Below are positions 56,501-64,000 of a DNA stretch of 64,000 nucleotides, one piece after another. Position 1 is the stretch's first letter, and the number at the start of each line of letters is the position of its first letter. Source of the DNA: Candidatus Omnitrophota bacterium (GTDB taxonomy: Bacteria > Omnitrophota > Gorgyraeia > Gygaellales > Profunditerraquicolaceae); NCBI GenBank assembly GCA_028717245.1, contig JAQUOD010000001.1, positions 230,586 to 294,585 on the forward strand, written 5' to 3'. A program made the position numbers.

Positions 56501-59500
56501 TTTGTCATAAAATACTACATAATCCAAATCCTTTACAACAATATTACCTTCCTTAAGGCACCAGTTTATAGAATTTACGGGGAAACCAGAATCGTGCTTC
56601 TTACGGGTAAAGCGTTCTTCTTGAACCGCGACGACAATCTCTCCATCGCGCACTAAACACGCAGCGCTATCATGATAAAAACAGGATATGCCTAAGATAT
56701 GCATAATTTACTCCTCAACTTCCGGCTTAATCGGTTGAGCAATTACTTCGTATACGTCAATAGGGCCCGCTTCTTGAATGCATCTTATGCCCTTCTGAGG
56801 GCACTCTTCTGCCGTGAAACTCTTAATGAATTTAAGCCCGGGAATTTTAGCAACTTTATCTAGCTCTTCTGTCCATTCGATTAATTCTGTATTTTGATAA
56901 CCATCCCTGTGCACCAAAACATATTTTACCTTCATCCATCTTAAAGCTCCGGGCGTATTCGGATCGGATAATTTAATTATACTCTTGGCGACCTTATTGG
57001 GATAAGTTCCGGGGATAGTGGCATTAATAATTTTCTTCTCATGCCTGGTTTGGTAAAATTTATATATCTCGTTTGCCCCTTCTACATCCAGAGGATACTC
57101 CGCTATGATAAAATCTCCGGGTTGGGCCTTAAGCCAATAGTAAACCGCAGGGATCCCGGAAACATTGATAACCTTAAAAGGCGGCCAATTCCAGGATTCA
57201 AATAAGAATAAACCGCAGGATAAGGCAGTTATAACAACCTTAGTCTTTTGTGAATTGAATTTCTCTAAAATAAATTTTAATCCCACCCCTGCGAGGACAG
57301 CTACTGCCAACATAACTACAACGCCAAACCGGCAATATGCGCGGAACATGGGAAAAATCTTATACATAAAAAATGACGGCATGTAAATTTTAAATGCCCC
57401 GATTTCCCACCACGGAGGTTGAGAAAAAAACCAGGCTACAATTGCCAGCCATATAAAAAACCCGATATAAAAATCTTCATTATTCGTGACTCGTAATTCG
57501 TGACTCGTAATTCGTAATTTTTTATTTCTTCTCCATTTTCTAAAAGCGATAAATGCAAAGATAAGCGATGTCCATCCCAAATACAGGGCATGTTCGGTAA
57601 AACTCATCCCATATATAGATAAACCGATAAATTGTTCGCTGAATTTACCAAATATAGGGTGTACCGCATCCGGCAAAAAGTAACTTAAGGGCCTTGCTGA
57701 TTGTTCAAACAAATCATTAAATGTCCGGAAATATCCTCCAGCTATTAAATCCTGCGTTCTCTGCGTAAAATATGCCGCTTTAAAGATAGGCAGGATTATC
57801 GGAAGAAGAATTAAAAACGCCAGGGACATGCTAATGAGGGTATCTCTAGCTATTCTTAAATAGCCTTTTTTATCATATACAAAAATAAATATAATAAATG
57901 CAAGCGTAATTATTAAAGAGAAGTAGGCATAATAATAATTAAAGAAAGCTATGAAGCAAAAACTTATAGCAGTAAAAATCATATTTTTCAGTGTGCTTTT
58001 CTCCCTTAAATTAAAGAGCGCCCATAGATACAAGGGCAACCATTGAATTTGAGCTAAGCTGGGATGCTGCCATGACCTTACGGTATGATAAGAAGAAAAA
58101 CTGTAAATAATTCCGGAAAATATGGATGTTAACCTATCATGGGTAATACCATAAACTAAATAATACATAAAAATAGCAGACAAAATAAAACTGATTACTA
58201 CCTGGAGATTATAAGCGATTATCTCTCCAAAAATTAAGGTTAAAAATTTATTAATAAAATCTCCTATGGGGTATGCCGGAGATTGAGCCAGATTTAAGCC
58301 AAAGGGGCTGGCAATAAAAGGAGAAAAATTATCCTTAAGATGTTGTAGATGGCTGTATTTAAGCCACCAAAAATTCCATAGCACTCCGTAAGGCTCATCG
58401 GTGCTATGAAAGCCGGGTATAGCTGTATTAAAATTAAGAATAAGCGGAAAGGTAAAAATAGCGGTCAAAAAAATAAACAATAGTAAGATTATGCTTGTAA
58501 GTCTCATCTAATTTTTATTAAAGTAGACTACTAACCTATAACCGCGCACGCCTACGTCAACCCAGGAATTCCCGTCCCAATCAATCAGCTCCCTTTTCCC
58601 TAATTCTGCATACACAGGCGAGAAAAAAACTTCCTTATTCTTAAAGTGCTCCTCTGCCAATAGGCTAAATATATCTGTTCCGTAACCGACATCCTCTCCA
58701 TAACCGACATAGTAAACCTCGTCATTATTATATAATAATAAATTTCTAAAATTCTGTAATATATTATCATGCGAGATAACCTGCATTTTCTTTTGCATGG
58801 TTTCTTTTTCCAGGTAATATTTTATTAAAGTATCGTGCACTCCATTTGTAATAACCATTGCACCATCTTTCGCGTTATCGTAAATATACCTTGCCGCCCC
58901 CCTCCAATCCGTCAACCGTGCCGGCATCTGATAGTATAGTTTTAAGGGTAGATAAGACAGGCTGGCAAAAATAATGAGGATTACCGCGGTTAAGGCGTTC
59001 TTGCGAGGAAGGATATACTTAGAGTTCAGGAAATTAGTGATGCCTTTAGAAACAATGATTATATATGCCGGATAGGTAAAAATTACATAACGGATATGGA
59101 AGAAATGTTTGAGTTCCATAAAGGAAAGGAGAAAAAAGGGAAAAACCAGCCAAAAGATTAACAGGCCTGTTTCTTTTCGTTTATCCCCTCTAAATAAAGA
59201 AATAAGTCCGCTGATAAAGAAAAAATTATAAATAAATAGCTGCAGACCGTTTCCCGCCCCATATCGGCAGAGTAAATTCTTATAATAAATCGGGTTTAGG
59301 ACCACCCTGCCTGGGGTAAGCTCGGATTCTGCGGCAGAAATAAATTGTATTGAAACAGGCAGGCTTAAAACAATAATCCCTATTATGCCAAGGCCGAATT
59401 TAAGCATGCTATTAATAACCGACTTATAATTTCCTTTCTTTCTAATGGCCCTTTGAAAAATAAACACTAACCAAATAATTATTTCACTCGTTAAAACAAA

Positions 59501-62500: not shown

Positions 62501-64000
62501 ATATTTAAGGGTTAGATTATTAATCCGGGTGATATCGCCTTGCCGAGCTAATGTATCCATTAATTCTAACAACGGATACTCGCCCTCCCCGCAGCAAATC
62601 ATATCTATCGTTGGCTCAGAGATGATCTCGGGGTTAAAAGTAGAATGGCAACCCCCGAAGATAATTGGTAAGGAATAATTTTTTTTAATAATTTTTGCCT
62701 GCTCTAAAGCCCAGGGATAAGAAGGGGTCATACAGGAAAAAGCGACTATATCCGCACAAGACTGGCGTAATTCTCCTAAAATTATCCTGCTCTCAAGGGC
62801 AATGGATACTCTAGCATCATGCCCATGCCTCTTGATTAAAGATGACATAGACATAATCCCCGCGTATTCGCTGCTATCTGGCTGGATAAAAAAGATTCTG
62901 CTCATCTTACTTGCATCAAAAAACCTACTCGTGCCTGATCCTCGAAAATAAGAATTTTAAGACAAGAACCATTAAAAACCCCTCTAAGATAATCCGGAAA
63001 TTAAGCTTAGAGTGTTCATATTTTCTCTCCACGAAAATAATCGGTATTTCTTTTATCCTGAAACCGTAAAGTATGCTTTTATATAAAAACTCATGTACTA
63101 CCGCAGGCCCTAAAGAAATAGTATTATCTAAATTGATGGTCTCTAAGACCTTACGGCGAAAACAACGGTAGCCAGAGCTGCAATCGTGTATTTTTATACC
63201 CAGGATTCTACGTACATAAACATTGCCTAGCCAAGAAATTATCCGTCTAATAAAAGTCCTACCCATGTCCCTGCCTCCCCTGATAAAACGGGAACCCAGC
63301 ACCACATCGTTATCTTTAATTGCCTCCAAAAAATCAGGGATATATTTAGGGTCATGCGAAAAATCAGCATCCATTTCAATAATGTAATCTGCCCCCCAAT
63401 CCAAGGCATACCTAAAACCATCCTTACCCGCCGCTCCGCGCCCCTTAAGTTTCTTTCTTAATAAAAGATGCACGCCGGGGTTTATTTTATTAATATCTTC
63501 AACGATCTTTGCCGTTCTATCCGGAGAATCATCGTCTACTACCAGGATATCCATATCTTTTATTTCCAGCGCGAGTATGGACTTTAACAACTCTGCGATA
63601 TTTTCTTTCTCGTTATAGGTAGGAATCACGACCATTATCTTCATCTGCGGCATCCTAAGATTTTAAAGTACCTTTTATTAAAGAAAGTCCTTCTAAAATA
63701 TTTATTTTAAATTCTTGCCAGGATTTAACCGAGAACAGACGCTTGAATAGATATACGGGCCTTAGATAAAATTCCTTCACTGCCTGCCTGCGCCAGAAGA
63801 AAACTTCTTCCTTAGACATATGGCCGGTCCCCATTACGGCATAAGTTCCGGATTGATCCATATCGTCATGCTCAGAAAGCCATAGATTATCTCTTATCGC
63901 TTCCCGCCGCAATTCTGTATTTGCCCGGGGTATGGCAATATTGAAAGAGATGTAGTCAAAATCACACTCCTTAAAAAAAGTAATCGTATCCCTAATGCTC

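Follow-up and report, generated by a model that had tools for sequence, protein, structure and literature searches.

Candidate radical SAM tailoring of lipid-linked sugars in a Candidatus Omnitrophica surface-glycan locus: a conserved association of cobalamin-type radical SAM proteins with polyprenyl-phosphate-type GT2 and GT-C glycosyltransferases

ArnD and DprE1/DprE2 alter a polyprenyl-monophosphate-linked monosaccharide between its synthesis and its transfer by a membrane glycosyltransferase of the GT-C type, and in the moenomycin pathway the C-methyltransferase MoeK5 and the carbamoyltransferase MoeM5 tailor a sugar that is phosphate-linked to a prenyl-derived lipid. Radical S-adenosylmethionine (SAM) proteins (rSAMs) of the cobalamin type (class B) methylate unactivated carbons (GenK, Fom3, MoeK5, HpnP/R) or catalyse rearrangements (OxsB, HpnJ, BchE). 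In a sequence-similarity network of this class HpnJ, MoeK5 and Fom3 co-cluster at stringent thresholds, and MoeK5 is among the members for which action on a lipid-linked sugar is known or proposed (PMC9204698). HpnJ itself acts together with a family 2 glycosyltransferase (GT2), HpnI, and a deacetylase, HpnK, on bacteriohopanetetrol-N-acetylglucosamine (GlcNAc), while the substrates of Cds are archaeal glycolipids (PMC13459092). In the system that includes the undecaprenyl phosphate (Und-P)-GlcNAc synthase GacI, the DUF2304 protein GacJ forms a complex with this enzyme and stimulates it (10.1101/180810), just as its mycobacterial homolog Rv3632 stimulates the polyprenyl-phosphate (polyprenyl-P) N-acetylgalactosamine synthase PpgS (PMC3485146), and in both cases transfer is finished by a GT-C, GacL and Rv3779, respectively (10.1101/180810; PMC3485146). 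An auxiliary epimerase alters the polyprenyl-P sugar in the PPPRS-epimerase-GT136 three-component systems for pentofuranoses (PMC11127046). Here we describe an operon, at positions 54322-63999 of a 64-kb stretch of contig JAQUOD010000001.1 (the window, meaning the whole stretch analysed) from a Candidatus Omnitrophica metagenome-assembled genome (MAG), in which genes for two predicted cobalamin-type rSAMs stand between those for a small GT2 and a GT-C. We consider, with a probability of roughly 0.4, that these rSAMs belong to a widespread and uncharacterised family that acts directly on polyprenyl-P-monosaccharides at the inner face of the membrane, leading to C-methyl, deoxy or carbocyclic changes, with GT-Cs delivering the product. 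Judging from sequence identities of about 50%, the family would extend from Omnitrophota, Elusimicrobiota, Nitrospirota, Desulfobacterota and bacteria of the candidate phyla radiation (CPR) to DPANN archaea.

The genes of the operon, named below by their lower coordinate, are the following:

63655-63999, minus strand: C-terminal end of a radical SAM protein that runs off the window; full length 462 amino acids (aa) in the adjoining locus L001 (5019-6407, PF04055), with BLASTP matches to paralogs 5369 and 60051
62925-63653, minus strand: small GT2 of 242 aa, predicted polyprenyl-phosphate sugar synthase (DPM1/AglJ/PpgS/GacI-like; PF00535, 115 bits)
61472-62905, minus strand: class-B-type radical SAM protein A, 477 aa (PF04055, 82 bits; PF02310, 44 bits)
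60051-61469, minus strand: class-B-type radical SAM protein B, 472 aa (PF04055, 90 bits; PF02310, 72.9 bits)
58508-60067, minus strand: GT-C glycosyltransferase of the PMT_2/ArnT type, 519 aa (PF13231, 52 bits; PF02366, 25.7 bits)
56708-58507, minus strand: second membrane glycosyltransferase of predicted GT-C fold, YfhO/DUF6311-like, 599 aa (family profile)
54896-56704, minus strand: carbamoyltransferase of the NodU/CmcH type (PF02543, 350 bits; PF16861, 244 bits)
54493-54909, minus strand: small membrane protein of the SxtJ family (PF19588, 34.6 bits), its start overlapping the carbamoyltransferase stop
54322-54480, minus strand: small membrane open reading frame (ORF) of 52 aa, assigned by position, not by Pfam, from its match in place to the DUF5989 (SxtK-like) gene of locus L002 (52 aa, PF19451)

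Spacing between successive genes is 1, 19, 2, -17, 0, 3 and -14 nt, short or negative distances that indicate an operon-like arrangement, and the 17-nt overlap of the rSAM B stop with the start of GT-C 58508 argues for translational coupling of the two. A sequence-only reading of this DNA had proposed GT2 62925, rSAMs 61472 and 60051 and GT-C 58508 as one unit; its coordinates coincide exactly with the ORF boundaries and its family assignments hold, and we find that the operon runs on past 58508 into 56708, the carbamoyltransferase, the SxtJ-type protein and the 52-aa ORF. The trio formed by these last three genes (54322-56704, minus strand), directly after the GT-C pair, is conserved in L002.

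The GT2 fits the polyprenyl-phosphate sugar synthase class (DPM1/GtrB/ArnC/GacI/PpgS/AglJ) in its family match, a DAD motif and a single C-terminal hydrophobic segment (residues 219-237). Its best NCBIfam matches (AglJ, PgfS, dolichyl phosphate (Dol-P)-hexose transferase, PpgS and ArnC) are all polyprenyl- or dolichyl-phosphate glycosyltransferases and all fall below the equivalog cut-offs; from this family similarity polyprenyl phosphate is the predicted acceptor. The assignment of 58508 to the GT-Cs was borne out by a PMT_2 score of 52 bits (cut-off 26.1) and at least seven hydrophobic segments. The profile of its family also matches ArnT (5ezm, E 4e-7), and a WIDE motif follows the first transmembrane (TM) segment, with D48-E49 nearly invariant in the family, in agreement with an integral-membrane transferase of the GT-C fold whose first extracytoplasmic loop bears an acidic motif. 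Databases call its start two codons downstream. The neighbouring protein 56708 has no Pfam match of its own, but its family, widespread in Omnitrophota, carries DUF6311 and YfhO matches, and it aligns to the PMT_2 profile with 92.7% probability. Searches of the PDB with the single sequences of 58508, 56708 and 6793 (a GT-C-like protein elsewhere in the window) gave no match, family profiles and a structure model being required; the family profile of 56708 found no match among PDB sequences either, and outside the membrane core its structure model is of moderate confidence only.

Both rSAMs have the Cx3Cx2C cluster motif (CPFDCSYC in 61472, CPGKCIFC in 60051) and pass the cut-off of 32.1 bits for the B12-binding domain PF02310, and by domains and motif they are predicted to be cobalamin-type proteins. 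They represent two subtypes, A and B, which recur as a pair: by BLASTP, 61472 is a paralog of 22437-23903 (39% identity) and 60051 of 20324-21739 (45% identity), and orthologs of rSAM A adjoin 60051-type proteins in loci L010, L011, L012 and L026. Simple tandem duplication does not account for the units, since the GT2s beside the two A/B pairs of the window are not mutually closest among their paralogs. A hydrophobic C-terminal segment in rSAM A (FFIVAVKFPFFLPLIKYLI, hydropathy 1.94; range for the A type 1.9-2.0 on the Kyte-Doolittle scale) gives a weak hint of membrane association. AprD4 is a sugar 1,2-diol dehydratase and no methylase, with the same fold, and binds no cobalamin. It is the nearest solved structure to the AlphaFold2 model of 60051 (pLDDT 91.7; TM-score 0.74), followed by MgmA, TsrM, OxsB, CysS and TokK, with which five the model aligns over both domains, and AprD4 is also nearest to the family profile (E 1.5e-40). 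HpnJ and BchE are the best NCBIfam models over the paralogs. For 60051 the best-scoring model is HpnJ, with 218 bits, and 61472 reaches 116 bits on it; membership of HpnJ was rejected because both scores lie far under the equivalog cut-off of 577.6; BchE, PhpK, Fom3-like proteins, radical SAM methylases of ribosomally synthesised and post-translationally modified peptides (RiPPs) and the other named NCBIfam families of B12-rSAMs were likewise rejected, all 11 paralogs falling below every curated cut-off. Among homologs of the 60051 type, six (P0063, P0088, P0112, P0128, P0131 and P0137) carry an N-terminal fusion to a class-I SAM methyltransferase (about 700 aa), and in locus L090 a methyltransferase-rSAM fusion (3937-6045) follows two more B12-rSAMs and precedes a GT2. 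Another paralog of the window, 5369-6820 (minus strand), has a Cx4Cx2C motif (CAYRKCAFC) in place of the canonical one.

Shuffling of the order of the 56 window genes gave 3.1 expected adjacencies of GT2 and rSAM for 7 observed (p = 0.016), and 0.42 expected strict runs of GT2, rSAM(s) and membrane protein for 2 observed (p = 0.06). Repetition within the window, only marginally non-random, was therefore rejected as proof of a module on its own; it is conservation across phyla that makes the pattern non-random. Neighbourhoods were sampled through the 60051-type rSAM sequence alone, for which 1771 homologs were found at E<=1e-20, many of them about 50% identical and from Elusimicrobia, Patescibacteria, Deltaproteobacteria, Coriobacteriia and Nanoarchaeota. 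Scanning species-representative genomes with the family motifs yielded at least 595 confirmed loci, 80 of which were retrieved; neighbours were counted with our own dynamic-programming gene caller and labels from jackhmmer seeds. Statistics refer to 30 non-redundant species-level loci (rSAM identity at least 43%), and the counts are lower bounds because MAG contigs are often short and many loci truncated. Of the 30 loci, 9 have a GT2 within one gene of the rSAM and 15 within three genes; 14 have a GT-C or other polytopic protein no more than five genes away, and 10 have both. As background, 8 GT2s were counted among 273 genes located at a distance of more than six genes from any rSAM. Synteny of the 60051-type rSAM with a small GT2, DUF2304 (GacJ) and a GT-C was observed in Desulfobacterota, Nitrospirota, Elusimicrobiota, Coriobacteriia, Patescibacteria and DPANN archaea, which strengthens the earlier suggestion that GT2, rSAM and GT-C form a functional unit. 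Representative gene orders are:

Deltaproteobacteria (L005): YfhO, GT87, methyltransferase, GT2, rSAM, YdjC
Nanoarchaeota (L007): STT3, SpoIIM, GT2, carbamoyltransferase, 490-aa membrane protein, rSAM, polysaccharide deacetylase
Coriobacteriia (L008): compact operon of PMT_2, 194-aa protein, GT2 and rSAM, the surrounding genes being unrelated
Patescibacteria (L091): methyltransferase, GT2, rSAM and PMT_2 with shared stop/start positions, in the GT2, rSAM, GT-C order of the window
Elusimicrobia (L010, L011): GT2, PMT_2, rSAM B (52% identity) and rSAM A (39% identity)

When 38 neighbouring GT2s were taken together with 62925, 23 of the 39 matched AglJ, 21 PpgS and 20 the Dol-P-hexose transferase, while the 39 polytopic proteins (38 neighbours and 58508) included 14 PMT_2, 3 STT3, 1 GT87 and 1 YfhO, the remaining neighbours being transporters of no apparent relation, found mainly where the rSAM identity is low. 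In ten loci or more (L014, L021, L023, L036, L039, L042, L047, L049, L052 and L087) the GT2 adjoins a DUF2304 protein of 117-132 aa with three or four TM segments (Pfam E 7e-21 and 5e-25), mostly placed between GT2 and B12-rSAM; five of these (L036, L039, L042, L047 and L049) are minimal GT2-DUF2304-rSAM operons. This neighbour ties the GT2s to the class that makes polyprenyl-monophosphate sugars more firmly than the sub-cutoff hidden Markov model scores do. The GT2s of L015, L033 and L085 (383-410 aa, 3-5 hydrophobic segments) resemble GT2-DUF2304 fusions. Deacetylases (YdjC or Polysacc_deac_1) stand beside the rSAM in four loci, YdjC in L005 and L035, and class-I methyltransferases adjoin it in 9 of the 30 loci and are fused to it in several homologs. 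In L007 the carbamoyltransferase between GT2 and rSAM has 900 aa and an intein-like LAGLIDADG match, and in L013 (Thermodesulfobacteriota) an ORF of 3286 aa lies directly upstream of a 60051-type rSAM, with no GT2 nearby.

The families, the operon structure and the coupling across phyla of this rSAM family with GT2s of the polyprenyl-P type (with or without DUF2304) and GT-Cs are direct observations, and a functional link between the rSAMs and the donor route formed by GT2 and GT-C is likely. We give even odds to an overall scheme in which a surface glycan (or protein) would be decorated outside the cytoplasmic membrane by means of a polyprenyl-monophosphate-linked sugar with rSAM tailoring, following, by analogy, the logic of GacI/GacJ/GacL, ArnC/ArnT, GtrB/GtrC and CsbB/YfhO. 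Given its family, GT2 62925 would charge polyprenyl phosphate, on the cytoplasmic side of the membrane, with a hexose or N-acetylhexosamine (HexNAc) taken from a nucleotide sugar. On that side rSAMs 61472 and 60051 may alter the sugar, with polyprenyl-P-sugar as the favoured substrate. C-methylation of an unactivated carbon seems the most likely chemistry, deoxygenation as in AprD4 or ring contraction as in HpnJ/OxsB being the alternatives, and the sugar may also be carbamoylated by 54896. The tailored lipid-linked sugar would then be flipped, with no dedicated flippase recognisable in the operon, and one or both of the GT-Cs (58508 and 56708) would pass it to an acceptor outside the membrane. 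Since rSAMs need cytoplasmic SAM and reductant and GT-Cs act outside, any action of the rSAMs on the donor sugar would have to precede flipping.

Comparison with the described systems shows how much of this scheme has precedent. The GacI/GacJ/GacL system for the GlcNAc side chain of Streptococcus pyogenes and PpgS(Rv3631)/Rv3632/Rv3779, for galactosamine (GalN) on arabinogalactan of M. tuberculosis, share with the locus a GT2, a GT-C and, as far as the orthologous operons are concerned, DUF2304; they have no rSAM, whereas the window operon lacks DUF2304 and a recognisable flippase but encodes two GT-Cs and a carbamoyltransferase. The claim of the sequence-only reading that tailoring between synthase and GT-C is not a described step was overstated in view of ArnD, DprE1/E2 and the epimerase of the pentofuranose systems, and the ArnC/ArnD/ArnT, DprE1/DprE2 and PPPRS-epimerase-GT136 pathways provide a precedent for a lipid-linked sugar being deformylated or epimerised before transfer by a GT-C. 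Their tailoring enzymes are hydrolases or oxidoreductases, while the candidates in the window are cobalamin-type rSAMs, with which C-H functionalisation would be possible. HpnI/HpnK/HpnJ and Cds are alike in combining a GT2, a YdjC-type deacetylase and a B12-rSAM on a lipid-bound sugar, and deacetylases beside the rSAM in L005, L007 and L035 mirror the HpnI/HpnK/HpnJ set, which supports rSAM tailoring. In the window, however, the sugar would be carried by polyprenyl phosphate and a GT-C would hand the product on, and a ring-contracted carbocycle would no longer serve as a glycosyl donor; no hopanoid genes (shc, hpnH/G/I/K) were found among the Pfam annotations of the 56 window genes. The moenomycin pathway shares with the operon the pairing of rSAM and carbamoyltransferase, the likeness to MoeK5 being drawn from its described role, but it produces a secondary metabolite on a phosphoglycerate lipid and employs Leloir glycosyltransferases and no GT-C. 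AprD4, GenK/GenD1 and OxsB all share their domain architecture with the window rSAMs and act on carbohydrate carbons; their substrates, on the other hand, are soluble aminoglycosides or nucleotides, AprD4 does so without cobalamin, and they have no GT2/GT-C context. In literature on radical SAM with polyprenyl, undecaprenyl, GT-C or Omnitrophota, we found no rSAM in a polyprenyl-P-monosaccharide system. Undescribed, as far as this literature goes, is solely the pairing of rSAM and polyprenyl-P-monosaccharide; the scaffold (Gtr, Arn, Gac, CsbB/YfhO, PpgS/Rv3779) is already known, and so, in principle, is donor tailoring.

The overall scheme, including action of the rSAMs specifically on the lipid-linked sugar, which we favour tentatively and by analogy with HpnIJK, MoeK5, ArnD and DprE1/2, has several points against it. 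No feature analysed separates a lipid-linked from a nucleotide-linked substrate, and the NCBIfam matches of GT2 and rSAMs, all far under the equivalog cut-offs, identify neither the sugar nor the chemistry. The nearest solved structure, AprD4, is neither a methylase nor a user of cobalamin, and the hydrophobic segment of rSAM A is weak in the Elusimicrobia orthologs. The order of genes also varies between lineages, L010 and L011 having the four focal families permuted, and since the succession of reactions cannot be read from the arrangement of genes, a lipid-linked substrate is not deducible from it. Association with a GT2 is frequent, not universal (15/30, as counted with our own gene caller on loci of which many are truncated), and the surveyed loci are glycan islands, so part of the co-localisation is generic. 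Finally, no dedicated flippase (GtrA, Wzx/GacK, MATE, ArnE/F) appears among the Pfam matches for 54322-63999, and the only Wzx-like gene of the window (14481-15812) is about 40 kb away; this weakens membership of a three-component system without excluding it, since not every characterised system encodes one.

The rSAMs could act earlier, on a soluble nucleotide sugar such as uridine diphosphate (UDP)-HexNAc, after which the GT2 would load the modified sugar and the GT-C transfer it. The observed synteny fits this possibility equally well, B-type rSAMs have no hydrophobic segment, the relative Fom3 methylates a cytidine monophosphate (CMP)-linked substrate, and enzymes of nucleotide-sugar metabolism are at hand: a UDP-GlcNAc 2-epimerase in L091, epimerases or dehydratases in L007 and L027, and RmlA/B, DegT and short-chain dehydrogenase/reductase (SDR) enzymes in the window. 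We nevertheless regard it as doubtful, because the compact operon of the Coriobacteriia (GT-C, 194-aa protein, GT2 and rSAM) has no other nucleotide-sugar enzymes, the GT2s look like ordinary AglJ/PpgS/DPM1-type enzymes that use common UDP- or guanosine diphosphate (GDP)-sugars, the nearest functional analogues with a GT2 partner (HpnI/K/J and MoeK5) act after transfer to the lipid, and deacetylases of the ArnD/HpnK kind work on lipid-linked sugars.

An explanation that dispenses with the donor route is generic clustering in a glycan island, the rSAMs tailoring repeat units linked to undecaprenyl pyrophosphate (Und-PP), lipid A/core or a membrane lipid (cf. HpnP/R and tetraether/ladderane-type lipids). 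The presence of 12 rSAMs among 56 genes, along with GT4, GT9, Wzx, Wzy_C and MGDG-synthase genes, the module count barely above chance in the window (p = 0.06), the half of the surveyed loci without a GT2 within three genes and matches, comparable in their sub-cutoff scores, to rSAM families that modify lipids (ladderane, HpnR) all agree with it. It would leave unexplained, however, why minimal operons outside glycan islands (L008, L091 and the GT2-DUF2304-rSAM loci) retain GT2 and rSAM, with or without a GT-C, why a GT2 is found beside the rSAM far more often than in the local background, and why rSAM B is translationally coupled to a GT-C by the 17-nt overlap, and we consider it unlikely. 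Very improbable, in our view, is a RiPP-like C-methylation of a peptide or protein followed by O- or N-glycosylation by PMT- or STT3-type GT-Cs: proteins are glycosylated by the PMT and STT3 families, STT3 adjoins the Nanoarchaeota locus and there are sub-cutoff NCBIfam matches to RiPP rSAMs (ApyD, 175 bits; rSAM_ocin_1), but these are weaker than those to HpnJ and BchE, and the associated genes (carbamoyltransferase, deacetylases, epimerases) are of sugar-tailoring types. This reading was set aside because the focal operon showed no protease, no exporter and no ORF resembling a precursor peptide.

The operon is part of a larger surface-glycan locus. Pfam annotation of the 56 genes of the window (GC content about 0.38) gave 10 proteins with a Radical_SAM domain, nine of them also with a B12-binding domain, the exception being paralog 11879, without a B12 match in Pfam; in all, the 64-kb window holds 11 class-B-type paralogs, the partial gene at its edge being the eleventh, and one SPASM rSAM. 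There are eight GT2 and at least four GT-C genes, besides GT4, GT9, Wzx, Wzy_C, RmlA/B, DegT, SDR enzymes, methyltransferases, the carbamoyltransferase and a monogalactosyldiacylglycerol (MGDG) synthase. All large ORFs but one, a hexapeptide transferase (37826-38533, plus strand), are on the minus strand. A housekeeping block at 34524-41436 (GAPDH, two GalT/HIT-like proteins, hexapeptide transferase, Fmt and PriA) divides the locus into two islands, and the two DegT/EryC1-type aminotransferases, 44970-46112 and 30195-31319 (both minus strand), are by far the closest paralog pair of the window with 69% identity, which suggests a recent duplication between the islands. A transglutaminase-core protein (13190-14392, minus strand) lies between the Wzx flippase and rSAM paralog 11879-13186. 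Upstream of the window on the same contig the rSAM-rich locus goes on (L001, 1-6407); there it encodes two SPASM rSAMs, an epimerase, one GT4 and one GT9, and it includes the complete 462-aa rSAM whose C-terminus lies at 63655-63999.

Two further units with rSAMs were recognised. The second, at 18802-30198, consists by Pfam of:

28831-30198, minus strand: GT-C
27827-28834, minus strand: GT2
26408-27826, minus strand: B12-rSAM
25309-26406, minus strand: SPASM rSAM
23904-25301, minus strand: B12-rSAM
22437-23903, minus strand: B12-rSAM
21749-22444, minus strand: small GT2
20324-21739, minus strand: B12-rSAM
18802-20331, minus strand: B12-rSAM

The third, at 2824-10847, consists of:

9906-10847, minus strand: GT2 with two C-terminal TM segments
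8153-9934, minus strand: membrane protein
6793-8145, minus strand: GT-C-like protein
5369-6820, minus strand: B12-rSAM
4306-5304, minus strand: GT2
2824-4302, minus strand: B12-rSAM

The idea of a module repeated four times in the window stood for the focal, second and third units, but one of the four modules listed has no rSAM, and the membrane proteins 8153 and 50789 could not be matched to GT-Cs. In the second unit the GT-C (PMT_2, 36 bits), the GT2 and the downstream rSAMs are present as proposed, while the description of GT2 27827 as ArnC-like was rejected, its best matches being MftF, an arsenosugar glycosyltransferase and EpsD, along with Glyco_transf_21. The order 9906, 8153, 6793 and rSAM 5369 of the third unit agrees with Pfam and TM counts, and the GT-C-like character of 6793 rests on hhalign of its family profile against PMT_2 (97.2% probability), PMT_2 matches in 18 of 21 relatives and a match to STT3A in the PDB. 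The grouping of 50091, 49411 and 50789 as a module fails, the unit containing no rSAM and 50789 not having been shown to be a GT-C. The latter (50789-52834, minus strand; 681 aa, about 14 hydrophobic segments) adjoins GT2s and has only faint matches to GT-C_AftD and the LIC_10190 family; 8153-9934 (minus strand; 593 aa, about 8 hydrophobic segments) also adjoins a GT2. Neither gave a significant match in Pfam, NCBIfam or the PDB, including single-sequence hhalign and lenient Pfam searches, and both could be further divergent GT-Cs or polymerases. The several additional, differently arranged copies of the toolkit suggest that the glycan made by this locus is heavily modified by rSAMs.

Lipid-phosphate-sugar three-component glycosylation is a general route to the antigenic and structural diversity of bacterial and archaeal surfaces, and its donor sugars have so far been known to be altered by hydrolases and epimerases only. 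With compact operons of three or four genes, as in Patescibacteria (L091) and Coriobacteriia (L008), the hypothesis of rSAM action on the lipid-linked sugar is open to a direct test by heterologous expression. If it is true, a new class of sugar tailoring at the level of the lipid carrier would extend this route to C-H chemistry, giving access to C-methyl, deoxy and carbocyclic sugars; it would provide a biological role for a branch of the class-B rSAMs that is very large and so far orphan, and would lead one to expect uncommon sugars on the cell surfaces of anaerobic phyla that are for the most part uncultivated, among them the episymbiotic CPR, DPANN and Omnitrophota.

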